Source: a virus
Taxonomy: Duplodnaviria > Caudoviricetes
Length of the DNA stretch: 64,000 bases
IMG/VR virus record: IMGVR_UViG_3300028591_000090
Location: 1-64,000 of that record
Reading direction: 5' to 3' (one strand)
This document shows, one piece after another, positions 5,670-63,973 of the stretch. A program made the position numbers and the translations under genes. The notes beneath the pieces were generated by a model. That model worked only from the letters and a program-made list of their open reading frames with translations, did not search any database and had not been told where the DNA came from. Position 1 is the first letter of the stretch. The number at the start of each line of letters is the position of its first letter.

Positions 5670-6010
5670 AAATAATGTTTATATTTGCATAAACAAATTA
5701 GTAATAACATTAAAATTAATATGGTTATGAAAGTAGCATTAATGATAAATGAATCTAATTCCTGTCCGTATAAAAAGTTATTAACAAGAAAATCTGTTGA
5801 TACTAATACATTAAGGGCATTGGCTGTTAAATATAATAGACAAATTTCAAATGAATTGGGTTATGGAGCTTATTATATTGTAATTATAGATGAAACTAAA
5901 GTTCCTAAAAATATACCGTCTAAATTTTTAGATTAATTTAATTTTTTAGCGGAATCTATAAAAAAATCAACAAATACTTGCAATTGTTAAAAATAATGTT
6001 TATATTTGCA
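5621..6010 (+). repeat. ~69 bp direct repeat (5621-5689 and 5942-6010) containing a promoter, flanking one ORF
   Basis: tttttagcggaatctataaaaaaatcaacaaatacttgYaattgttaaaaataatgtttatatttgca twice. Confidence 0.9.
5721..5936 (+). CDS. hypothetical protein
   Basis: ORF between direct repeats. Confidence 0.6.
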   Translation: MVMKVALMINESNSCPYKKLLTRKSVDTNTLRALAVKYNRQISNELGYGAYYIVIIDETKVPKNIPSKFLD

Positions 6011-46482: not shown

Positions 46483-47020
46483 GAATCTCTTTCATTAAAT
46501 TATTTCTAAAACGCATACATTGAACTTTAATGGTATCAACTTTTTTATCCGTCTCCAATGATATATCTTTTAATGATTTACCGTTAATGTAATACTCAAT
46601 AAAAGAATTCTTGTTTATATTATCATTTAGGTTATAAATTATATCCTCAACACGAATATGTATATCATTTGCAGACGGCTCTCTATATATCTTATCTTCT
46701 ACATCTATACTATATGTCTTAATACTTTTCTTTTGCTTTTGCAATTTAGTACAGCATACAGAATTGATTATAGTATTCAACCACGTTCTAAATACCTTCT
46801 CTTCTTTTCCTACACCCTTGAAATTCTTTACACTATACAACAACTTAATAAATACCTCTTGTGCCATATCTTCCGAATCTTCGACATTCTTTGTATAGGA
46901 ATAACATTTCCATTTAATGTATTCATTATACAATCGAAAATATTTATTAACAGTTTTATTATCTTGTTCTACCAAACCCTTATACTCTTCCTGCGTCATC
47001 TTTAATGTATTTAATCCCAT
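46466..47020 (-). CDS. ECF-type sigma-70 factor
   Basis: DSEDMAQEVFIKL, FRTWL..I..; region 4 HTH. Confidence 0.82.
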   Translation of the reverse strand: MGLNTLKMTQEEYKGLVEQDNKTVNKYFRLYNEYIKWKCYSYTKNVEDSEDMAQEVFIKLLYSVKNFKGVGKEEKVFRTWLNTIINSVCCTKLQKQKKSIKTYSIDVEDKIYREPSANDIHIRVEDIIYNLNDNINKNSFIEYYINGKSLKDISLETDKKVDTIKVQCMRFRNNLMKEIHARVY

Positions 47021-47495
47021 TTACCCAACCATACTCAAGTGCATCTTGCACAACCTTACGGAAGTCATTATCCATTTTCAAAATAATATCAGCATTGGTT
47101 GTTGTAAACTCTTTTTTCATATTATTAAGAGCGTCCATTTCTCCTAAAAGATTGTCTGCATTGTCTATTATGTTTGCAATGTGTTGTGTTTTATCACTAA
47201 ATTTTAACGATCCATTCTTACACAACTCAATTGCTTTCTCTATCATTGCAGTTTGTGTTTTCAATACGGTATCATATTGATTTTCTTTGTCAAAAAAGAT
47301 TACATTAAAAAATTTATCATACACAACAAAACCATAATTAACCCTATTCTTTATGTCTCTTTTTTCAGTTAATTTCATATATATACCCAATCGCTTTCTT
47401 AAAAAAGCAAGAATAGACGATACATTATTGTCTTTCTCATTGAAATCTGGAAATAATTCTTTTATTTCCTTAATCAAATCTTCACTTATAACCAT
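46980..47495 (-). CDS. hypothetical protein
   Basis: ORF after promoter. Confidence 0.7.
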   Translation of the reverse strand: MVISEDLIKEIKELFPDFNEKDNNVSSILAFLRKRLGIYMKLTEKRDIKNRVNYGFVVYDKFFNVIFFDKENQYDTVLKTQTAMIEKAIELCKNGSLKFSDKTQHIANIIDNADNLLGEMDALNNMKKEFTTTNADIILKMDNDFRKVVQDALEYGWVNGIKYIKDDAGRV

Positions 47496-47539
47496 ATCTT
47501 TATTTTTTTGCAAATATAAAATAAAAATATGAGAAAAAC

Positions 47540-47576
47540 AAAAAAAAGGAGAAACTTTTTAAACAATTCCTCCTCT
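47540..47576 (-). terminator. terminator of RNA operon
   Basis: aggaggaatt/agtttctcct plus T8 on - strand. Confidence 0.6.
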
Positions 47577-47729
47577 ATCTCTTCTTGACTTATCGTCAAG
47601 TAACGCTAAACATAACGCTATCGCATCTGATTGTGATAATTTCTTATTACCAACCTGACAACGTACATTAACAACAATATTTTCCAAATGTTCTTTTGGC
47701 ACGGGAAAAAGATTATTTTATGCTTTTTG

Positions 47730-47805
47730 TGTGTTAGGTTGGATTCGAACCAACGACCTTCTGCTCCACAAACAGACGTTCTAAACCAACTGAACTACTA
47801 ACACC
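47730..47805 (-). tRNA. tRNA-His(GTG)
   Basis: cloverleaf, G-1. Confidence 0.9.
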
Positions 47806-47810
47806 ATGTG

Positions 47811-47884
47811 TTGTTGCGAAGGGACTCGAACCCCTAACGTCCAGAATCAAAATCTGGCATTCTAACCAGTTGAATTACGCAACA
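47811..47884 (-). tRNA. tRNA-Gln(TTG)
   Basis: cloverleaf. Confidence 0.9.
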
Positions 47885-48033
47885 ATAAAAACGGCTTCAC
47901 GTACCGTTTTGTGGGCTTCAATTAGAATACCACGGAAGTTCATGGTGTGTGTGCACCTAACTTCTCTCACCATAAATCCACACAATTAGTGAGACCTAAA
48001 TCATATAATGCTCCAAATAAGGAGACTTCTTTG

Positions 48034-48107
48034 TGGGAACGGAGAGATTCGAACTCTCACTACATAGATTCTAAGTCTATTGCCTCTACCAATTGGGCTA
48101 CGTTCCC
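48034..48107 (-). tRNA. tRNA-Leu(TAG), short variable loop
   Basis: cloverleaf. Confidence 0.88.
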
Positions 48108-48166
48108 ATGTGCCCCATACGGAATCCTCACGCTGGGGCTATGATGACAAGCGTTTTTTATTTAGG

Positions 48167-48248
48167 TGCTTTGAGACAAGTTGGGACTCGAACCCAAATC
48201 CGAGGTTTTATTTTAGACCCCGTGTCTTAACCATTAGACGACAAGCAT
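48167..48248 (-). pseudogene. aberrant tRNA (10-nt anticodon loop, broken acceptor)
   Basis: intact D and T arms. Confidence 0.6.
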
Positions 48249-48263
48249 GAAACACATAAATTG

Positions 48264-48335
48264 TGTTCCGAAAAGGAATCGAACCTTTATTGTCTGCTTA
48301 GAAGGAAGATGTTCTATCCATTGAACTATCGGAAC
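48264..48335 (-). tRNA. tRNA-Arg(TCT)
   Basis: cloverleaf. Confidence 0.88.
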
Positions 48336-48339
48336 TTTT

Positions 48340-48562
48340 GCACACCTAACAGCACTCCTATGGAATTACCCAATGGTCTGTTGCCTTTACTGGCTCAGGG
48401 ACTCTGGTTTGTGTGCTCTACTATAGTCCCTTTTTCGTTAAAATTTGGACGCCTGAAGATGCTTCCCTGCGTGGATACTCACGTCCTCGTTCTTACTTCG
48501 CTACTCACGCTTTTAGTCGACATATTAAACGCTTTTGCTTTTCTGACTCAGTTCATTGCTAG
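48340..48562 (-). ncRNA. unassigned structured RNA ~220 nt
   Basis: GC-richer spacer; ggacg/cgtcc, agggact/agtccct, closing stem. Confidence 0.5.
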
Positions 48563-48564
48563 TG

Positions 48565-48639
48565 TCGTGCATAGGGGATTTGAACCCACTAATTTCTTCC
48601 TTGAAGGGGAAGCGACTTAACCAATTCGTCTAATGCACG
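48565..48639 (-). tRNA. tRNA-Glu(TTC), C33
   Basis: cloverleaf, loop CCTTCAA. Confidence 0.78.
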
Positions 48640-49443
48640 TTTTTTTAATTTATTATAAATCATTCCTTTACCAGCACAACTTCGTGAACAATAAAATGTT
48701 CCAGTTCTAAATTTACCATGTCTATAAAATAATTTACCACAAAAAGCACATTCATAATTATTATCATAACTATTATCATATAGTTCTTCTAAATGTTTTA
48801 CATTATATTTGTCTTTGCAATAATTTATATAAAATAACATATCATCATAATATAAAACTTTAGAATTTTCTGGTAAATGTTTTAATTTTTCTTCTGTTAT
48901 ATTTGTTTTAAAACCTTTTATTTCATATATTATACCATCTATTTCAAAATCTGGATTATAAAAATGTTTTTCTCCATCAAATTCATATTCTAATTTTTTA
49001 TCACATCTTTTTATGTTTGAATTGTTATCAAGATGATAAATAAGAAATGCAAGTTCCCAAGTAGAATCTAAAAAGAAACCTTTATAAAAACCTTTATGTC
49101 CTCTACCACTACCTTTTCTATATCCTCCATACTTAACATTTTCTTTCAACCATTTTTCTTTACATTCTTCTGAACAATATTTAGAATTTCTCTTTCTTAA
49201 ATCAAATTCAGTACTGCAATATTTACATTTTTTAATTTTTGGTATTTTGGCTTTTTCTCTTCTAATTTCGTTATTAAAAGGGACCCATTTACCACCATGC
49301 ATTAAAGTGTAACCAATTTTCTTTTTTGTTTCTTCTGAATGGTGTCGTGTATTTGCACAACTTTTAGAACAAAATCTTCCAGAACCATAATTCCCATTAT
49401 GTTCTTTTCCACAATTTTCACAAATAAAAATTTGATTTTCCAT
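48589..49443 (-). CDS. free-standing PD-(D/E)XK homing-endonuclease-like protein with Zn fingers and NUMOD3
   Basis: STWE...YNPDF...EIKG; HSEETKKKI; CxxC...FCSxSC. Confidence 0.8.
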   Translation of the reverse strand: MENQIFICENCGKEHNGNYGSGRFCSKSCANTRHHSEETKKKIGYTLMHGGKWVPFNNEIRREKAKIPKIKKCKYCSTEFDLRKRNSKYCSEECKEKWLKENVKYGGYRKGSGRGHKGFYKGFFLDSTWELAFLIYHLDNNSNIKRCDKKLEYEFDGEKHFYNPDFEIDGIIYEIKGFKTNITEEKLKHLPENSKVLYYDDMLFYINYCKDKYNVKHLEELYDNSYDNNYECAFCGKLFYRHGKFRTGTFYCSRSCAGKGMIYNKLKKRALDELVKSLPLQGRN

Positions 49444-49580
49444 AATTATTTTTATCTTTTTTTATAGGTTATTGGTAGTAACCTTTATTTTATTTAGTTT
49501 TAAAAAATAGTAGTTAGATAAAACTATGGATAATTTTATCAATTGGCTACCAACCAGATGTCCTACTATTTTTATAGTTT

Positions 49581-49663
49581 ATGCTTGTGTATGATAGGCT
49601 TCGAACCATATGCCTCTCTATCTCTATAGATTGTTCTGCCATATTAAACTACAACACAAGCAT
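49581..49663 (-). pseudogene. aberrant tRNA-like RNA
   Basis: extended acceptor, T-loop, no proper anticodon loop. Confidence 0.55.
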
Positions 49664-49783
49664 TTCGTTTTACTAAAAACTCTACGACTTTGCAAAACTA
49701 CTCCGTGGAAAACGATACACGTTTCATTTACTTAAACCATCCATTGAGACCGGATGCAGTCTCATTTAAGCGTGTGAATTTTG

Positions 49784-49860
49784 CGGTGACAGTAGGATTC
49801 GAACCTACGACCCAGGGATTAACAGTCCCTTGCTCTAAAAACCAACTGAGCTATGTCACC
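49784..49860 (-). tRNA. tRNA-Asn(GTT)
   Basis: cloverleaf. Confidence 0.92.
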
Positions 49861-49864
49861 ATAA

Positions 49865-49937
49865 TATTTAAGTTTGGAATCGAACCAAAGCCTTTCTCAA
49901 TACATGGAGAAGATGCAGACCACTACACTACTTAAAC
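49865..49937 (-). pseudogene. aberrant tRNA (8-nt anticodon loop CATGTATT)
   Basis: acceptor, D and T arms intact. Confidence 0.6.
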
Positions 49938-49938
49938 G

Positions 49939-50012
49939 TGGACCAGACTGGGCTTGAACCAGTGACCTCCTGATTATGAGTCAGTTGCTCTGACCAACTG
50001 AGCTACAGGTCC
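49939..50012 (-). tRNA. tRNA-Ile2/Met(CAT)
   Basis: cloverleaf. Confidence 0.88.
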
Positions 50013-50031
50013 AAAAAAAGTGGTAGAAGGA

Positions 50032-50142
50032 ATAGTTTCAAATCCATAGAAAAACATGGAAATTGTTTATAATTTAATAATTACTGGGTGAACTACTACA
50101 CCCTCTATCCCATTGTTGAAAACTTTTGAGAATACTTTTCTA
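50032..50142 (-). ncRNA. orphan tnpB right-end / omegaRNA-like copy
   Basis: near-identical to 61907-62017. Confidence 0.75.
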
Positions 50143-50159
50143 ATTAATAACTACCACTT

Positions 50160-50286
50160 AAATCTTCGCCGTGCTGACCTTACACCTATGATTGCTACTC
50201 TTACACATATTAGTTGTACACCTAAATATGTGATATGGTGCACCGTTTCACAACCACGCAGACTCGAACTGCACCTGCGACATGCT
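50160..50286 (-). ncRNA. YrlA-type Y RNA (permuted tRNA mimic)
   Basis: order T arm, closed acceptor, D arm; 3' GGCGAAG motif. Confidence 0.7.
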
Positions 50287-50292
50287 TTTTTG

Positions 50293-50363
50293 CTCGGTCG
50301 AAGGGACTCGAACCCTCATACGCCCCCGTCAATGGGGCTGTTCTACCGTTAAACTACAACCAA
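50293..50363 (-). tRNA. atypical tRNA (loop ATTGACG, nominal TGA on class I body)
   Basis: full cloverleaf, non-canonical loop. Confidence 0.55.
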
Positions 50364-50458
50364 GAAACACATTCTAACGCTGCAACATTATTATGTGCCA
50401 ATGGACATAAATGCTTTAATCGTTTGCAGACAATCTTTGCATTCGCCAATCCATTTAG

Positions 50459-50530
50459 AACAAGAAATGAGAATCGAACTCACATATCCAGTTTTGAAGA
50501 CTGGAGCACTAACCGTTGTGCTATTCTTGC
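50459..50530 (-). tRNA. opal suppressor tRNA (TCA), Gly-like body
   Basis: CCAGT-CTTCAAA-ACTGG. Confidence 0.85.
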
Positions 50531-50539
50531 ATTTTTATG

Positions 50540-50626
50540 TGGCTCAAATCGGACTCGAACCGATACGAGCATTTCTGCCCCTGGGATTTTAAGTCCCATG
50601 CGTACTACCAATTTCGCCACTGAGCC
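50540..50626 (-). tRNA. tRNA-Leu(TAA)
   Basis: class II cloverleaf. Confidence 0.92.
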
Positions 50627-50634
50627 AAAATTTG

Positions 50635-50751
50635 AGTCGCCAACTGGATTCGAACCAGTATCTCCAATGTGATTTAGGAAAATCTTACGTATTGTACAGA
50701 ATGAGGCTGTACCGACCTCAAATACGTTGGCACCTATTAGACGATGGCGAC
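50635..50751 (-). ncRNA. tRNA-like RNA with pseudoknot insertion
   Basis: perfect acceptor and T arm, ~45 nt insert. Confidence 0.65.
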
Positions 50752-50757
50752 AAAAAG

Positions 50758-50860
50758 TTGTGTTAGATGGATTCGAACCAACAATGTATGCTATTCTACA
50801 TGCTTATTTACATACTCCTACCACAAATGTAGGTGGGTTTACCATTTCCCCTATAACACG
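50758..50860 (-). pseudogene. atypical tRNA (TTG loop, oversized variable arm)
   Basis: D, anticodon and T arms present. Confidence 0.55.
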
Positions 50861-50867
50861 AATTTTG

Positions 50868-50939
50868 TTGCGAGAGAGGGATTCGAACCCACGACCTACA
50901 GCTTATGAGGCTGCCGAGCTACCTCTGCTCTATCTCGCA
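50868..50939 (-). tRNA. tRNA-Met(CAT), initiator-like
   Basis: cloverleaf. Confidence 0.85.
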
Positions 50940-50952
50940 ATATATTTTATTG

Positions 50953-51026
50953 TGGTCGTTCTACGACTCGAACGTAGGACTTCTTCGGTATCAGCGAAGT
51001 ACTCTAACCAACTGAGTTAAACGACC
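50953..51026 (-). tRNA. tRNA-Ile(GAT)
   Basis: cloverleaf. Confidence 0.88.
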
Positions 51027-51029
51027 AAG

Positions 51030-51435
51030 AATAATCAAAACTAAAAAGTGTGTTTAATCATTAAGTAACATTATAGTAAACACAGATTATTGTCTACATC
51101 CGTAACACGGCTTTCGTTACTAATCACTTTGCAAGCAAAGGCAACAATAATCTTTTACTTTTTTACAAACTCTTTTTCTGTTCGATGGCGAGTTTATTTA
51201 TGGTCCATTTCCGTTGCCAAGTAACATAATTCATAGCAAACAATCACGGAAACCTACGATGAGTTGTTGAGTAACAAACAAAAGTTGCTATATCAAGGAC
51301 GACATATATATAATCGGCTAAATGACCGACTTTCAGAACCTTGTTCTGCTATCCGAGATTATCTTACCTTGATTTAAGATAGATACAAATTCATTGTATC
51401 TCTTGGAGAGTTTAGGCAGTAGTTGTCTTTCTACT
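51030..51435 (-). ncRNA. unassigned large structured RNA ~400 nt
   Basis: no ORF; many hairpins. Confidence 0.55.
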
Positions 51436-51437
51436 TG

Positions 51438-51511
51438 CGGGTAGTACGAGATTCGAACTCGTGAACTCCTCATAGACAGTGAGGAATGATAGACCGCTTC
51501 ACCAACTACCC
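51438..51511 (-). tRNA. tRNA-Asp(GTC)
   Basis: cloverleaf. Confidence 0.9.
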
Positions 51512-51629
51512 AAATTTGAGGTTATTTTTATACGTATGGCTCGTAAACTTATTCTGTCTTTCTTATGCGTTCTGCTGTTACACATTAGTCTAAAGAAGTA
51601 ACATCTATAAGTATATTTACGATTTCCAT

Positions 51630-51730
51630 TTCACCTCAAGCATCATTTGTTTAAATGCTTACGTTTACATCTTTTTCCTTTTCCCGTATGTCAAAGAACT
51701 CGTTTGTTTTATTTAACGATGCAAATATAC
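51630..51730 (-). promoter_or_regulatory. internal promoter plus boxA-like leader 2
   Basis: gtatatttgc; gttctttgacatacgggaaaa shared with 53775-53796. Confidence 0.75.
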
Positions 51731-51785
51731 AACAATGTTTTGAAACAACCAAATAAAACAACAACTTTTTTTTATTTTTTTTTTG

Positions 51786-51871
51786 CGGAGATTGTAGGAC
51801 TTGAACCTACACGTCTTACGACTACTGACAGTTTAGCAAACTGCTCCCTTACCAATTAGGGTTAAATCTCC
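51786..51871 (-). tRNA. tRNA-Ser(GCT)
   Basis: class II cloverleaf. Confidence 0.9.
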
Positions 51872-51881
51872 ATATTATATG

Positions 51882-51954
51882 TACTCGTGCAGAGACTCGA
51901 ACTCCAATCTTCAGATCCGTAGTCTGATATTCTAATCCATTGAACTACACGAGC
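51882..51954 (-). tRNA. tRNA-Arg(ACG)
   Basis: cloverleaf. Confidence 0.9.
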
Positions 51955-51959
51955 AGTTG

Positions 51960-52031
51960 AGCACTCTATTGGAGTCAAACCAATTTATACGGTTTTGCAG
52001 ACCGCCACCTAAATCGTCCGGTACAGAGTGC
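51960..52031 (-). tRNA. tRNA-Cys(GCA)
   Basis: cloverleaf, somewhat divergent. Confidence 0.8.
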
Positions 52032-52195
52032 AAAAATGTGTTGGAAAATCCTCGTGCAACACCACACGCCAACTCAACGATTTGGCTCCATCTCGTAAGA
52101 TGCTACTTTAGAAAGTTTTCCCAAAGCATTCACACAATTAGTGTGAGAGACGTTTCGATCCTACTTTTAACATGTATTATATGTAGGCTATAATG

Positions 52196-52267
52196 AGCAG
52201 ATAAAGAGAATCGAACTCTCATCTCCAGAGTGGAAGTCTGGAGCACTAACCATTGTGCTATATCTGC
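52196..52267 (-). tRNA. tRNA-Gly(TCC)
   Basis: cloverleaf. Confidence 0.9.
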
Positions 52268-52272
52268 ATAAA

Positions 52273-52512
52273 TTATCTTAATTCAATTAATTCTTCTTTT
52301 TCTATTGCTTTACGAATCCAACGCATCAAAATAATTGCTTTATCATAATGGCACATAAACGTAGCAGTTTCTCCTACATCGTGTGTGTCTGCCAAATTGA
52401 TTTCCAATTGATATTTTTTACCACTTTCTGACGTTAATTCATAAATTGCAACACCGCCTGCTTTAACGCAAACCATATCTGCATTTCCTTTAATAATATC
52501 TTTCAAATCCAT
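52273..52512 (-). CDS. conserved small phage protein inside tRNA array
   Basis: DVG.TATF....KAI.LMRWIRKAI. Confidence 0.75.
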   Translation of the reverse strand: MDLKDIIKGNADMVCVKAGGVAIYELTSESGKKYQLEINLADTHDVGETATFMCHYDKAIILMRWIRKAIEKEELIELR

Positions 52513-52531
52513 AATATATGTATTATTTTTG

Positions 52532-52604
52532 TCTGGGTAGCAAGACTCGAACTTGCGACCTGATGGTCCCAAACCACCCGTTCTACCAACTGAACTATAC
52601 CCAG
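52532..52604 (-). tRNA. tRNA-Pro(TGG)
   Basis: cloverleaf. Confidence 0.9.
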
Positions 52605-52613
52605 TTTATTTAG

Positions 52614-52686
52614 TGACTCCGATGAGGTTCGAACTCATGACCCCATCCTTAAAAGGGATGTGCTCTCCCAACTGAGCTACGAAGTC
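52614..52686 (-). tRNA. tRNA-Lys(TTT)
   Basis: cloverleaf. Confidence 0.92.
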
Positions 52687-52954
52687 ATGTGCTAATATCG
52701 TATGTTCTTCGTTTTGTTTGTTCTGGGCGGTTAAAAGAGAACAACAGATTTGGTAGTCTTTTCAATCTTAGCATTTTCTGAAAAGAATCGTTCCGCACCT
52801 ACGTCTAACTTTTGTACTATTCACCACGAGTTTACGATGACCTTGAGTCTGTTTACGATTACCAGTCGTTCCAGAAGTCCATCTACATAGTTACTTTGGC
52901 AAGTTTCGTCTATGCCAGCGTTTGTTTATAACCTCAACGCAATTTGGTATTTTG

Positions 52955-53029
52955 TGGAAGCGATGGGACTTGAACCCACGACTTTCTGCGTGCAAGGCAG
53001 ATGTTCTAGCCAAACTGAACTACACCCCC
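52955..53029 (-). tRNA. tRNA-Ala(TGC)
   Basis: cloverleaf, G3:U70. Confidence 0.9.
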
Positions 53030-53261
53030 ATAAAAGAATCTTGACGTATTTCTTATGAGAATTCCTTCAACGGATTATTTAGTGCCATTAAATAACCATT
53101 CCTTTGATTTTGTCTGTTATGCATAAATGAACTTATGCACTCTAACCATATGTCATATACGTTAGAATGTTTTCCCGACAAATCGTGAAGGTTAAGGCTC
53201 AAAGTACTAAGTTTACCTTTTCTTCACGACTGCTATGATATAGCGTCAGGCTGCAATTGCG

Positions 53262-53346
53262 TGGGAGAGGAGGGATTCGAACCCCCTGTGTTTCTATGTG
53301 CTGGTTTTACAGACCAGTGCTACTCCACCATCGTAGCCGCTCTCCC
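53262..53346 (-). tRNA. tRNA-Tyr(GTA)
   Basis: class II cloverleaf. Confidence 0.9.
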
Positions 53347-53352
53347 AAAATG

Positions 53353-53439
53353 CGGAGAGGGAGGGATTTGAACCCCCGGTGCTTTTTAGGGCACGACGGT
53401 TTTCAAGACCGTTGCAATAAGCCTCTCTGCCACCTCTCC
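53353..53439 (-). tRNA. tRNA-Ser(TGA)
   Basis: class II cloverleaf. Confidence 0.92.
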
Positions 53440-53452
53440 GAGTAAAATTTTG

Positions 53453-53526
53453 TTGGCTTAGTGAGACTCGAACTCACACTTTATAGGTTTTGAATCTATT
53501 TCCTCTACCGATTGGGATACAAGCCA
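53453..53526 (-). tRNA. tRNA-Leu(CAA), short variable loop
   Basis: cloverleaf. Confidence 0.85.
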
Positions 53527-53533
53527 ATGTTGT

Positions 53534-53587
53534 CTATCTAGTGTGATTCGAACACACGTGCTCATGTTTCTAATGCAGGCCTAGATA
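53534..53587 (-). pseudogene. D-armless tRNA remnant
   Basis: TATCTAG/CTAGATA and GTGTG-TTCGAAT-CACAC. Confidence 0.55.
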
Positions 53588-53601
53588 ATGATAAAATTAA
53601 G

Positions 53602-53674
53602 AGCTCCCACACGGATTTGAACCGCAGTCCCCTGATTACAAGTCAGGTATAATAACCAACTATACGATAGGAGC
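53602..53674 (-). tRNA. tRNA-Thr(TGT)
   Basis: cloverleaf. Confidence 0.9.
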
Positions 53675-53713
53675 GTAAGAAGGTTTTTGTTGTTACACAG
53701 GTGGATAAACCAC

Positions 53714-53850
53714 TTCACCTTTAGCATCATTTAATAAATGCTTCTGCGTTTGTTTGAATTTTGCTCTATAATCTTTTTCCCGTATGTCAAAGAACTTTTG
53801 GATTATTTGTTGTCGGTTTATCCATTCCGATTTTTTTTGCAAATATACAC
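53714..53850 (-). promoter_or_regulatory. promoter plus boxA-like leader 1 of RNA operon
   Basis: gtatatttgc; aagttctttgacatacggg. Confidence 0.75.
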
Positions 53851-53864
53851 AATATTTTTAAATT

Positions 53865-54027
53865 AAAAAAGGCTTTTGAATTTTTTTTATGTTCAAAAGC
53901 CTTTTCGATATATATATTGTGTATTGATTTCTACCTAAAAGACTTTTGAACATAAACGAGGGGCACTTTCGCAATTTTTATGTTGCGAATACAATGTTGT
54001 TCCTGCTATGTTAAAAATCTTTTTCAT
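53865..54027 (-). promoter_or_regulatory. putative leader-peptide attenuator (30-aa ORF 54027..53935)
   Basis: mutually exclusive 1:2 and 2:3 hairpins with T-run. Confidence 0.6.
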
Positions 54028-54219
54028 TTTTTTTATTTATTATTAAATTTTTATTTCTTTTTAAATTTTAAATTTTGGTAAACATTCATCATTTTCTTTT
54101 TTTAATTTTTCTAAATCACTCTTATATGGTTTTCTACCATTTTTTTGATTTTTCTTTAATCTTCCACCACCAATAAGAGGGATTCTTTTTCCAACATAAA
54201 ATCCCATAATTTTTAAATT

Positions 54220-54753
54220 TTAATCAAACCAATAAATTATTCTAATATTTTCTGTTTCTAAATGAAATCCTTCTTCATTACATGATAGGTCAGATTGATA
54301 TACTTGACCTAAAATTTCGTGAAAGAAAGAATGTAAATTCACATAATCGTTAAATGCAGAAAACTCATCTTCCAATATTGCATTTACATCTTTTCTTTCG
54401 AGGTCATCAAAAGATTTATCTTTTAGTAAACCTCTACATATTTCGTATTCATTATAATGACAGAAAGCATTTAGTTCATTATGCAATCTTCCATAGTGGA
54501 AATCACCCAATTGTGATATTTCTGCTAAAGTTGCCCAAGATTGTCCATAACTATTTTTTGATTGTGCAAAACTATTTACTTTTGCAGTACAATCTTTTGG
54601 CAAACCTCTTTTTTCAAATGGTCTTTCCTCGAAACTATTAGCAGAAAACATATCACGTATTCTACCTTGTTTCCATTGTGGACGTTTAGAAATTAATTTC
54701 CAAGTACCATCTGAATATTTTGCTTCTACTATGTAATTAAAATATGAACTCAT
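54220..54753 (-). CDS. conserved phage protein
   Basis: RGLPKD...SWATL.E...RIIYWFD. Confidence 0.75.
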   Translation of the reverse strand: MSSYFNYIVEAKYSDGTWKLISKRPQWKQGRIRDMFSANSFEERPFEKRGLPKDCTAKVNSFAQSKNSYGQSWATLAEISQLGDFHYGRLHNELNAFCHYNEYEICRGLLKDKSFDDLERKDVNAILEDEFSAFNDYVNLHSFFHEILGQVYQSDLSCNEEGFHLETENIRIIYWFD

Positions 54754-54828
54754 TTTCTATTTCATTTACGGTGCAAATATACAAATAATTTTTTAATTTG
54801 CAAAATATTTTTTAATTTTTTTTTGAAA

Positions 54829-55284
54829 TTATTTTCCAGTTGAACCGAAACCACCATCTCCACGTTCTGTTTCAGACAATTCTTCTGCAACGACAAATTG
54901 AATTTCTGGGATTGGAACAATCATCAACTGACCAACTCTATCACCAACAGAATATTCAGTACAGATTTTTTTAACGCTACTTGATGTATTGATTTGTTTT
55001 ACGTGTCTATTATATTTGAAAATAATTTCACCTCTATAACCAGAATCAATAACGCCAACGGAATTACATAGAGATAAGTCTGTTTTTGATACAGAACTTC
55101 TTGGGAACAATAATGCAACGTGTCCTTTAGGTACTTCAATAGCAAGACCAGTTCCATAGGCAACAACTTCACCGTTCTTTTCTTCTGTTCTACTTGTTGC
55201 TACCAAATCAACACAAGCATCACCATCTTTTGCATATGCAGGAATAACTGCATCTTCGTTTAACTTTTTAATTTTTACTTCCAT
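54829..55284 (-). CDS. dut: dUTPase
   Basis: FPRSS, GVIDSGYRGEI, RGDGGFGSTG. Confidence 0.96.
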   Translation of the reverse strand: MEVKIKKLNEDAVIPAYAKDGDACVDLVATSRTEEKNGEVVAYGTGLAIEVPKGHVALLFPRSSVSKTDLSLCNSVGVIDSGYRGEIIFKYNRHVKQINTSSSVKKICTEYSVGDRVGQLMIVPIPEIQFVVAEELSETERGDGGFGSTGK

Positions 55285-55287
55285 ATT

Positions 55288-55572
55288 TTAAATATTATTT
55301 TTTTTCTCTAAATAATCATTAGCTACGAATTTCAAACTATATAGCACATCCGTTTTTCTATAATAGATATTCACGGGGTCTTGCACTTGCTCGCACGACC
55401 AACCTATTCCTGCCTCAAAAGCACCTATAAAAACATCAATCGCATTTTTTACAAAAGCATCTCTTTCTTCTTTTTGAGATTCATTAGGATAATATTCTAA
55501 CGCCTTATCTTTTAAAACATCAATAAATGTTTTATTTTTTTGTTCGTTTAACTTTTTAATTTTTACTTCCAT
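55288..55572 (-). CDS. hypothetical protein sharing dut N-terminus MEVKIKKLNE
   Basis: ~35 bp direct repeat with dut start. Confidence 0.65.
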   Translation of the reverse strand: MEVKIKKLNEQKNKTFIDVLKDKALEYYPNESQKEERDAFVKNAIDVFIGAFEAGIGWSCEQVQDPVNIYYRKTDVLYSLKFVANDYLEKKNNI

Positions 55573-55577
55573 ATTTT

Positions 55578-56027
55578 TTATAAATTATTTTCTAATTTTT
55601 CAAGTTCTTCTACCAATTTGATTTGCGAAAAGAAACATTTCTTTTTTGCTTCTTCCAAAGTAAAAAATGTTGGATTGCAAACCTCTGGAATTTCAACATC
55701 TTTATCATTTACTTTTATGATGCACGTATTTGATTTGAAATTATCAAAATCAAACTCACCATGTGCTAAAAATATTTTAAGATATTTTTTATTAACGGTT
55801 GTAATATGTTCGTTATTCTGGTCCTCATCATAAACAAGATAAATATCTCCGTTTATTTTATTATTTGTTTCTTCAAAGAACTCTCTTCTTGCACACTCTT
55901 CAAAATCTTCTCCCTCATTAACAACACCTTTAGGAACACCAAAACATCTTTCACGATTATTCCCTGTTGCTTGAACAAAAAGATATTTTCCGTCTTTATT
56001 TCTTAATGCAATTCCACAACTTACCAT
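55578..56027 (-). CDS. Nudix hydrolase
   Basis: PKG.....E....CARREFFEETN. Confidence 0.9.
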   Translation of the reverse strand: MVSCGIALRNKDGKYLFVQATGNNRERCFGVPKGVVNEGEDFEECARREFFEETNNKINGDIYLVYDEDQNNEHITTVNKKYLKIFLAHGEFDFDNFKSNTCIIKVNDKDVEIPEVCNPTFFTLEEAKKKCFFSQIKLVEELEKLENNL

Positions 56028-61906: not shown

Positions 61907-63246
61907 ATAGTTTCAAAATCCATAGCAAAATATGGAAATTGTTTATAATTTAACAATTACTGGGTGAACTACAACACCCTCTATCCCATCGTTGAAAACT
62001 TTTGGGAATGCTTTTCTCATGATGTTATAGCTTCCGTTTACATCTGCGTTTATCTTGTTCCCATTTTCTGAAATAAACAAGCCACGGCGAACACGCTTGC
62101 CTTTATAAACATCATGCTTTTTAATTTCTTCCAAATCAAGGAAACTGCATTTAGATGTGTAGTTTTCCTCGTTTGTAATTACTTTTATCCCCACCTTTTC
62201 GCATTTGTATGAAATCATTTCAACAAATCTACTGTGGGGTATTTGTATGAAGTTCTGATTGTTTTTTGAACCGATGTTACAGTCTTTCTTCCATCCGTCG
62301 TTCTTTCCAATAACCAGAACAGATATATTCTTGTCTTTTAAATCATTGACTATTCTCTTACTTGCACGATGCAAGTAGTTGTCTACTTTATTATTCCTTT
62401 TATTTGTGAGCCTTCTTGTCCTATGCGAATGCTTTTTCTTATTGACTTTTTCTAATTTAGACTTATGTTTCGCAAGTTCCTTATTATAGAACTGGTTCAT
62501 CGATTTCAAAGGTTTTCCGTTTATTATAACTGGCTGTTCTCCATACGAATATGTTACCGTAGCAAGGTTATTAACGCCTAAATCAATTGAGGCAATTCTT
62601 TTATTGAATTTTACTTTTTCTACATCATCTATTGTATAGATTACCTCAATTACATATTGCTCGATTCTTGGAACAATCCTTACACAATTTATTGATTTAA
62701 AGTCGTTTATTTTTGTATAAAATTCTATGTTTACTTTTGATAGTTTAATTTTATGGGACTTATCAAATACTTTTTTTGAGATAGTCTGATTGTTGAATAC
62801 TGTAACATATCTTCCATCTTCTTTGTGTAAGAATTTTGGAAACTTGATGTTTTTATTATCAACATTATTTGAACGAATCATTCCGAAAAACGAGTTGCAA
62901 GTCGCATGAACAGCACGAAGTGTCGCCTGAGCAACCTTCTGCGGAAGTCGCTTGAAGCATTCATCGTTCTTCATATATAAATACGAATCATTCAATACAT
63001 TATATGTTTTGCTTTCTTCATATTCCTTTCGTATCAGATATAATGTCCTGTTATATATGTTTTTTGAAGAAAAACACAGCGAATCACATTCCTTATATAA
63101 GGAATGATTTCTATTAATAATATGTCTTTCTACCAATTGCATTTCTGTATAATAATACAGTTTCTTTTTATTATTTATTTGCAAAAATAATTGATTTTTT
63201 TTGTCAAATAAATTGTATTGTTTCCATAAATTTTCTATAATGTTAT
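61907..63246 (-). mobile_element. IS200/IS605-family (IS1341-like, tnpB only) element
   Basis: excision restores TAT AAA ATG ATT TAA stop of upstream gene; TTTAT left flank. Confidence 0.75.
61943..63142 (-). CDS. tnpB: TnpB RNA-guided nuclease (rearranged RuvC type)
   Basis: MQLVERHII, SIDLGVNNL, VIGKN..WK, EENYTSK, NADVNGSYNI. Confidence 0.92.
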   Translation of the reverse strand: MQLVERHIINRNHSLYKECDSLCFSSKNIYNRTLYLIRKEYEESKTYNVLNDSYLYMKNDECFKRLPQKVAQATLRAVHATCNSFFGMIRSNNVDNKNIKFPKFLHKEDGRYVTVFNNQTISKKVFDKSHKIKLSKVNIEFYTKINDFKSINCVRIVPRIEQYVIEVIYTIDDVEKVKFNKRIASIDLGVNNLATVTYSYGEQPVIINGKPLKSMNQFYNKELAKHKSKLEKVNKKKHSHRTRRLTNKRNNKVDNYLHRASKRIVNDLKDKNISVLVIGKNDGWKKDCNIGSKNNQNFIQIPHSRFVEMISYKCEKVGIKVITNEENYTSKCSFLDLEEIKKHDVYKGKRVRRGLFISENGNKINADVNGSYNIMRKAFPKVFNDGIEGVVVHPVIVKL

Positions 63247-63973
63247 ATAAAAATAATACAGACAATAAACTTGCTGGAATATTTTCATAAGTGAAATAAC
63301 AATTTTTAATATTCATTGCTGTATCTTTATATATCTTAATATTATTTAATTTATTTAAATTTATTTTAAAAACAACATATTGTTTAAGTCCAAGACTATC
63401 TGCCAATTCTGATAATTGTTCATCTATTGTACTAAAATCACTTGTTGAATATAAAAAAATCTTTTCTGGATAATATCTATATTCTGCACTTCGGCAACGT
63501 AATCCTTTTTTCATAATAAAGTTATAGTTTCTTTTATTTGTTATATGGAAACAAATTCCTTTATTTTCATTAAAGATTATATCCGTTGCATCTGTTGTAT
63601 AAACTGGTTCTATATATAATGTATCATCATCATTATAAGTAATATAATAATTAAAAAAATCTAATATATTTTTAAAATGTTCATTTAACAGTATTTCTAT
63701 TTTCCTATCTTTATTTTTACATTTAATTTCAAGGTTTGTTTTATCATCACTTGTTATCTTATTATATTCAACATCATCTGCAACATATTGTTTTAATTTT
63801 GCAATAAGAGAGTCTATATTATGAGATTGTAACATTTCACCTATAAAATCATATCTCCAATCTTCATTAAATTTTTCTTCAATCAATGAAAAGTCATTAC
63901 CGAAGAAATCTTTCAAAAATTTCTTTTTCTCGCAACATTTACAATATTCGTCAAACAGTAATACTTTTTTCAT
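63247..63973 (-). CDS. ART/Tpt1-like fold protein whose stop was displaced by the IS (reads into tnpB)
   Basis: FHIT...I.KKGL...IFL...NIP..L; LLFDEY start. Confidence 0.55.

Follow-up and report, generated by a model that had tools for sequence, protein, structure and literature searches.

A probable leader-peptide attenuator sampling the codons of a phage tRNA array

The window analysed here is the 64,000-nucleotide stretch formed by positions 1 to 64,000 of IMG/VR record IMGVR_UViG_3300028591_000090, a record of 183.6 kb in total. All of the tRNA genes of this record are found in one array on the minus strand of the window, comprising 24 tRNA genes and a number of weak tRNA-like genes. With a weak tRNA-Cys included, the array covers 17 amino acids; its distinct anticodons number 20. 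Read along the minus strand, the dUTPase gene is followed by a promoter motif (P1), a 177-aa ORF, a 48-aa ORF, a 30-codon ORF (hereafter the leader ORF), a terminator, a second promoter motif (P2) and then the tRNA genes (Table 1). Among the members of the array are a tRNA with the anticodon tca, which would read TGA (50458..50530), and a tRNA-like gene for which a four-base anticodon (tgta) was called (49865..49937). Further weak tRNA-like genes were seen by Rfam or by relaxed ARAGORN only.

Table 1. Features of the tRNA array and of the region leading into it (window positions).
Feature	Position	Strand	Remarks
Promoter P1, 12-nt TAnnTTTG-type motif	54772..54783	minus	motif only; putative start of the leader transcript
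Two-gene cassette between P1 and leader	54061..54753	minus	in window and L092, not in L090
177-aa ORF	54753..54220	minus	first gene of cassette
48-aa ORF	54207..54061	minus	second gene of cassette
Leader ORF, 30 codons	53935..54027	minus	ATG..TAG frame; TAG stop 53937..53935
Segment A, codons 2-8, pairs with B	54005..54024	minus	from minimum-free-energy folds
Inner hairpin, mid-ORF	53968..53989	minus	kept in both alternative folds
Segment B, last codons and first stop base	53936..53958	minus	pairs with A or C
Segment C, terminator 5' arm and first loop bases	53886..53905	minus	pairs with B or D
Segment D, terminator 3' arm and T-run	53865..53880	minus	C:D, then six T
Promoter P2, same 12-nt motif as P1	53838..53849	minus	starts 16 nt past the T-run
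boxA-like 21-nt motif in tRNA leader	53775..53795	minus	conserved; probe for other families
tRNA array, 24 tRNA genes and weak tRNA-like genes	47729..53674	minus	tRNA-Thr (53674) to tRNA-His (47729)
Weak tRNA-Cys	51959..52031	minus	one of the weak tRNA-like genes
boxA-like motif, second copy	about 51678..51698	minus	after internal promoter

Promoters of the TAnnTTTG type are known from Bacteroidota. The 12-nt motif was found in 21 copies in the window, compared with 1.04 expected, and in 23 copies in the whole record, and another consensus promoter is located inside the array at 51731..51720. A first-pass annotation, made from the letters of the window, had proposed a leader-peptide attenuator at this site with the caveat that a promoter also lies downstream of the terminator. 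That caveat was well founded, as the promoter at 53849..53838 carries the motif that is enriched in the window. P2 and the internal promoter, as predicted from their motifs, can drive the tRNAs without any read-through from upstream. With P1 and P2 equally strong, read-through would therefore at most approximately double transcription of the array.

The tRNA leader that follows P2 is approximately 160 nt long and contains the boxA-like motif. In 12 of the 21 loci of a metagenome scan this motif precedes a tRNA array by 5-30 nt, and the same holds for several IMG/VR contigs. No exact copy of the 21-nt motif was present in 185,579 cellular genomes and it therefore looks like a phage tRNA-operon signal; matches in cellular genomes to a 16-base form were mostly due to chance, with only two of approximately 80 adjoining tRNAs. 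The same tRNA leader contains 16 nt (53768..53783) that are perfectly complementary to 47701..47716, past the last tRNA and 6 kb away, and these two stretches could form a leader-trailer helix resembling that of rRNA operons. With respect to the cassette upstream of the leader ORF, the 177-aa protein has a close match only to itself, its distant relatives (27% identity) occurring in unrelated contexts that do not adjoin tRNAs.

The leader ORF is present as the first-pass annotation had described it, with 30 codons at 54027..53935 and 18 distinct amino acids. Such diversity is rare in this phage, at least 18 amino-acid types being found in only 0.8% of the 30-residue windows drawn from its long ORFs (p = 0.008) and 18 types being reached by 0.65% of all ATG ORFs of 28-32 codons. 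Also, 26 of the 30 codons are distinct (p = 0.003). As in leader-peptide attenuators, this short ORF stands behind a promoter, here recognised by its motif, and in this phage it is the third cistron of its predicted transcript, not the first. Its TAG stop is located at the 3' end of segment B, 30 nt ahead of segment C. The ORF is not called by any gene caller in public collections. Recoding of the TAG stop was considered and rejected, there being no TAG-reading tRNA in the array.

Folding of the region allowed four RNA segments to be defined. Three of them (B, C and D) are the segments 1, 2 and 3 of the first-pass annotation, and the alternative pairings of 1 with 2 and of 2 with 3 were found as it had described. 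Its attenuator logic stands but three segments do not suffice, as a fourth (A, 54024..54005) pairs with its segment 1. The A:B pairing is a hairpin spanning the ORF (-23.2 kcal/mol, z = -3.85). The B:C pairing, which is the antiterminator, joins 53955..53936 to 53905..53886 in an uninterrupted helix of 20 pairs that includes one G-U pair (-24.7 kcal/mol). The C:D pairing is the terminator hairpin, in which 53905..53886 pairs with 53880..53867 over 14-15 bp (-16.6 kcal/mol) with the T-run following. This intrinsic terminator (53905..53865) sits 190 nt ahead of the first tRNA. The minimum-free-energy fold of the whole region combines A:B with C:D (-40.4 kcal/mol, z = -6.3), and when A is masked this fold becomes B:C and the terminator is lost. 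The computed pairings are thus mutually exclusive, with an antiterminator strand that overlaps the end of the ORF, and the same layout was identified in five families of sequences (see below). An untranslated leader would be expected to terminate rather than to read through, because the A:B pairing leaves C:D free, as in the trp operon.

The strength of the competing duplex is unusual for this phage. Of 124 terminator-like hairpins in the 183.6-kb record, the one considered here has the strongest upstream competitor (-23.3), the median being -9.5 and the next best -18.1. Segment B is the best partner of the terminator 5' arm when compared to shuffles of the upstream sequence (p = 0.001), and the segment motifs are unique to this site within the genome.

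A permissive Rfam cmscan of window positions 47000..56000 and of five related loci returned only tRNA, tmRNA and chance matches, and the covariance models of the Trp, His, Leu and Thr leaders and of the T-box had no match in these sequences. This bears on whether the tRNAs could be sensed directly, with triplets of the leader pairing with anticodons in the absence of a ribosome in the manner of a T-box. While the leader does show triplets that are cognate to the tRNAs of the array, such sensing is highly improbable given that no T-box or other Rfam family was matched, that there is no T-box antiterminator bulge and that so many of the triplets are arranged in one reading frame from start to stop, as a ribosome would read them.

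Variants of the neighbouring proteins, taken from 90% clusters, led to two close relatives, L090 and L092. The sequence of L092 is almost the same as that of the window while L090 has approximately 90% nucleotide identity to it. The 177-aa and 48-aa genes are not present in L090, which has a clean absence of window positions 54068..54751 (L090 1830..1840). As a result the order in L090 is P1, 70 nt, leader ORF, terminator, P2, leader motif and tRNA-Thr, with nothing between the P1 motif and the leader ATG over those 70 nt, and the leader ORF is predicted to be the only ORF on the P1 transcript. L090 keeps the module without the two upstream genes, which indicates that the module belongs to the array and not to those genes. 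Conservation of ORF length had been suggested as a check by the first-pass annotation. In L090, 92 of the 93 bases of the ORF are identical to those of the window, compared with differences of approximately 7-10% in the flanks and approximately seven changes in the 30 nt of the spacer between B and C, and the further families described below have ORFs of similar length, at 27-34 codons. The sole change in the L090 ORF is non-synonymous and breaks a pair. In addition, segment C of L090 lacks 5 nt, and as a consequence of the broken pair and of this loss the B:C pairing (-14.5) is weaker than C:D (-17.0). The predicted weakening of B:C in L090 counts against a strictly thermodynamic switch. The order of the tRNA genes in the L090 array differs from that of the window, and a homing-endonuclease-like gene with NUMOD3/DUF559 matches is found between its tRNA genes (L090 3607..4332).

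Other routes to relatives were less productive. None of the 60 loci scanned, from 72 IMG/VR loci obtained by dUTPase synteny, had tRNAs nearby. Relatives of the helicase at approximately 50% identity had no tRNAs within 10 kb, and L082, a helicase relative at 95%, spans only the far end of the array. Neither IMG/VR nor the JGI metagenomes returned anything when scanned for exact copies of segment C or, with degenerate codons, for the leader. The first dUTPase matches had suggested a crAss-like label, which was rejected as the helicase is nearest to those of huge uncultured phages (35% identity) and the relatives have a T4-type portal.

More distant loci were chosen by the boxA-like motif and not by the presence of a leader, the metagenome scan providing 21 loci and IMG/VR scans adding more. 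The sequences with a leader were grouped into family 1 (the window, L090 and L092), family 2 (nine sequences, e.g., L105), family 2b (L132), family 3 (L093 and L119) and family 4 (L147). In the four families beyond that of the window, the small ORF has 27-34 codons and is accompanied by an intrinsic terminator and a TAnnTTTG-type motif. The distance from stop to terminator is 24-31 nt where it was measured (families 1-3), and the TAnnTTTG-type motif is at the place of P2 in four of the five families, L147 having a looser match only. In all families the ORF forms a single hairpin with the AUG and the stop codon at its base (z = -2.2 to -4.4). In each of eight sequences out of eight, the best upstream partner of the terminator 5' arm was the last codons of the ORF (p = 0.001-0.019 each), the site reaching to within 2-16 nt of the end of the stop codon. 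B varies along with the terminator stems, which are not the same in the different families. Its pairing extends into the first bases of the terminator loop in four of the five families, each of which uses base pairs of its own. From family 2 to L132, for instance, a G of B has become A and a C of the terminator loop has become U, a combination that, judged from the sequences, only the B:C pairing would explain. In L090, and likewise in families 2, 2b and 4, the terminator is stronger than B:C, so that control there would have to be kinetic.

Hairpin covariation, which had also been put forward as a check, was found in part. Within family 2, 95% of cells pair but no pair has changed on both sides, the sequences being too similar for this. 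When the families were aligned with one another by MAFFT, the result was out of structural register. A covariance model of family 2 finds the leaders of family 3 and reaches families 1 and 4 only faintly; covariation across families was therefore argued helix by helix and not counted formally. Not all arrays with the motif have a small leader. In the family of L094 and L103 there is none, and a 113-codon ORF ends before the terminator instead. In L106 (3641..3769), a member of family 2, a 19-nt deletion has removed six roster codons (those matching the downstream tRNAs) and shifted the frame, and the leader ORF still closes 16 nt before the terminator.

These comparisons are relevant to two other explanations of the locus. 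In one, the hairpin is simply an insulating terminator with a structured 3' end, such that transcripts from P1 end there and P2 alone drives the tRNAs. The hairpin would then stabilise the RNA or make a small RNA, the ORF would not be translated and the B:C pairing would be a by-product of a duplicated hairpin, A being like C and B like D. Features consistent with this are the match of P2 to the full consensus, the presence of at least one other terminator-then-promoter pair in the early region (terminator 47576..47545, promoter 47520..47509), the distance of approximately 220 nt from P1 to the T-run in L090, which is the size of a small RNA, and the conservation in L090 at the nucleotide level with no synonymous change. 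We nevertheless consider this explanation unlikely. Across five diverged families, and again in the second leaders described below, the frame spans the hairpin from base to base, the middles of the frames track the set of tRNAs downstream, for which a non-coding hairpin provides no reason, and the B:C pairing takes in bases of the terminator loop that covary with B.

The second explanation holds that the ORF encodes a small protein with its own promoter and terminator, and that the hairpins only tune its translation. In L090 the ORF does indeed have a promoter and a terminator to itself, and the ORFs are alike in length and in their first and last residues across the families. However, the parts of the peptide that are conserved are its two ends, and these correspond to segments A and B, where the RNA itself is under constraint, while the middle is swapped wholesale between families. 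The ORF of L106 ends before the terminator in spite of its frameshift, variable sites in family 2 are non-synonymous at least as often as synonymous, and public gene callers do not call the ORF. A small protein is thus very unlikely to be what is maintained here.

The codons in the middle of each leader were compared with the tRNAs downstream by scoring the longest run of residues belonging to the tRNA set, for which 200,000 windows taken from long phage ORFs served as the background. The leader of L093 has Gly, Cys, Asp, Trp, Gln, Gln and Glu consecutively (p = 0.002), and its array consists of exactly Gly, Trp, Cys, Gln, Glu and Asp. The leader of L132 has a stretch of 20 residues made up of exactly the eight amino acids of the first nine tRNAs (p = 5e-6). 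The longest such run had p = 5e-4 in the leader of L105 and p = 0.005-0.006 in that of L147. The latter leader runs Leu, Pro, Arg, Tyr, Asn ahead of an array starting Leu, Arg, Pro, Asn, Leu, Tyr, Met, and a fuller scan of L147 brought up further tRNAs (Thr, Gly, Ile, Asp and Cys), all of them absent from the first list but already named by residues of the leader. Every leader scores best on its own array except that of the window. The covariance model of family 2 also found, unasked, a second leader in L105, L097 and L132, and this second module stands ahead of a Val-Glu-Phe sub-array. The two leaders split the amino acids according to sub-array in record G003 (Fisher p = 2.9e-6) and in L105 (Fisher p = 6.5e-5). 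This split is an out-of-sample confirmation of the roster idea, that is, of leaders made up of the codons read by the tRNAs behind them.

Control codons matched to the tRNAs are therefore found in these leaders, the matching being strong in the relatives and modest in the window. Of the 20 distinct anticodons, 16-17 are sampled by the leader of the window (p about 0.015), the only exceptions being Asp, Arg(tct) and Leu(tag), and also Pro if wobble is treated strictly; the TTG codon of this leader matches tRNA-Leu(caa) and its CGT codon matches tRNA-Arg(acg). Three of the five leader residues for which ARAGORN called no tRNA belong to segment B (Cys26, Val29, Phe30), and for the two Cys residues only the weak tRNA-Cys is available. 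Membership counts of the leader against the array were not significant in the window, where coverage was 15 of 17 (p = 0.04). The match of leader to array is modest here (p about 0.015-0.04) because the array covers as many as 17 amino acids.

The breadth of the leader in the window had led the first-pass annotation to propose a pan-codon sensor of general translation failure. The breadth itself is confirmed, but leaders are narrow in relatives with small arrays and sample the roster of their own array rather than translation generally. The pan-codon appearance of the window leader follows from a near-complete array served by a single leader, as the roster rule predicts. In the version of the first-pass annotation, the translated ORF would sense general ribosome traffic or translation capacity, with slowing of any kind, for example by antibiotics, ribosome shortage or nucleases, leading to read-through. 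The window leader has 18 amino acids, 26 distinct codons and no run of a single codon, stalling from any cause would free segment B, and a cellular tRNA array of Anabaena is reported to be induced by impaired translation (PMC8421152). We regard a purely general sensor as improbable all the same, since the narrow leaders of the small-array relatives and the complementary pair of leaders within one phage point to codon-specific sensing. For an array as complete as that of the window, the general and the codon-specific readings merge.

Taken together, the locus is probably a leader-peptide attenuator of the trp/ilv type with a codon roster, which would add to the transcription of the tRNA array according to demand. 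The anatomy of the locus, its hierarchy of folding energies, its conservation and the matching of codons to tRNAs in the relatives are the observations on which this rests, and from them we infer that the leader is translated, that ribosomes stall within it and that this affects read-through. The proposal of the first-pass annotation, that a leader peptide attenuates the tRNA operon, gains from the conservation in L090, from the four further families and from the codon matching, and is revised in its segment logic and in the quantity that is sensed. In the proposed sequence of events, transcripts from P1 would carry the 30-codon leader ORF. If it were not translated, A would pair with B, C:D would form and RNA polymerase would stop at 53865. 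A ribosome travelling smoothly to the TAG would cover B, with the result that C:D would again form and transcription would stop. A ribosome stalled at approximately codons 2-19 by a scarce aminoacyl-tRNA would instead hold A open and leave B free, and the free B would pair with C once C had been made, so that no terminator would form. The polymerase would then continue past P2 and the boxA-like motif and transcribe the 24 tRNA genes. Since most of the array's anticodons are sampled by the leader, the switch would serve to sense demand, providing extra tRNA transcription over the basal flow from P2. On the evidence of the sequences, slow decoding of the roster codons probably leads the phage to make more tRNA. 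A link to host defences that deplete tRNAs is speculation.

Leaders of this general design are familiar from the amino-acid operons of enterobacteria, including trpL, hisL, leuL and pheL, and multivalent examples are those of ilvGMEDA, with Ile, Val and Leu codons, and of thr, with Thr and Ile codons. The pheST attenuator of E. coli applies leader-peptide attenuation to phenylalanyl-tRNA synthetase, with one amino acid sensed. For the multivalent attenuators see also PMC3082878 and PMC4046918. The module described here shares with the enterobacterial attenuators a short ORF in the leader transcript, four segments with exclusive 1:2, 2:3 and 3:4 pairings, a stop placed such that a terminating ribosome would mask the antiterminator strand and an intrinsic terminator before the regulated genes, and its control codons would likewise report the supply of charged tRNA. 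It differs in that the targets are phage tRNA genes where theirs are biosynthetic enzymes, and in that no single codon is repeated in a run, the leader instead listing up to 17 amino acids in correspondence with the array. The promoters are also of the TAnnTTTG type, there are a second promoter and a boxA-like motif downstream of the terminator, and no Rfam leader is matched. As with pheST, attenuation would act on a component of the translation apparatus and poor decoding would raise the supply of decoding machinery, but the product is the tRNA itself and many codons would be sensed, whereas pheST regulates a synthetase. T-box riboswitches are comparable in sensing tRNA status through a terminator/antiterminator switch upstream of genes for the decoding machinery, but they bind one uncharged tRNA directly, without a ribosome or an ORF.

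The closest parallel in terms of target is the L-array of Anabaena sp. PCC 7120, a long tRNA array spread by horizontal transfer which is reported to be switched on when translation is impaired (PMC8421152). This array is cellular and not of phage origin, and the text of the paper makes no mention of a leader, attenuation or a terminator; its mechanism may be a different one. In resistance leaders of the mef/mel type, a ribosome stalled on a short ORF blocks formation of a terminator (PMC4335068), but there it is a drug-bound ribosome that stalls on a particular peptide, and the targets are efflux or protection genes. In a full-text search of the literature, leader-peptide control of tRNA genes was not found described, although the coverage of this search was incomplete and prior publication is possible.

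A broader interpretation, to which we give somewhat less than even weight, is that these modules form a self-referential decoding homeostat, in which each array is gated by a test message written in its own codons and a shortage of any one of its tRNAs raises transcription of exactly the matching set. The shortage might arise from a mismatch in codon usage, from shut-off of the host tRNA supply or from host anticodon nucleases. The setting could be hosts with Bacteroidota-type promoters, and the single leader of this phage might watch nearly the whole genetic code. If the attenuator is confirmed, the questions of why phages have tRNA genes and how they time and dose them become directly testable, leader-peptide attenuation is extended from amino-acid supply to tRNA supply, the leader becomes a list, obtainable from sequence only, of the tRNAs that a phage treats as limiting, and compact codon-programmable sensors become available for synthetic biology in Bacteroidota. 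Natural variants for comparison are the L090 leader directly behind P1, the weak antiterminator of L090, the frameshift of L106 and the phage with two leaders.

A number of other features were observed in these contigs. Seven IMG/VR contigs from one metagenome (L123, L124, L126, L127, L131, L133, and L143) have a GC-richer variant of the motif, located 11 nt upstream of an odd tRNA-like gene with a two-base anticodon call, and no small leader ORF was evident in these seven contigs. Genes for tmRNA were identified in tRNA-array phage contigs, at 6987..7379 in L093 and at 5970..6382 in L094. Elsewhere in the window, the minus strand encodes a TnpB-like protein of 676 aa (61943..63973) possessing OrfB_IS605 and Cas12f-like TNB domains.
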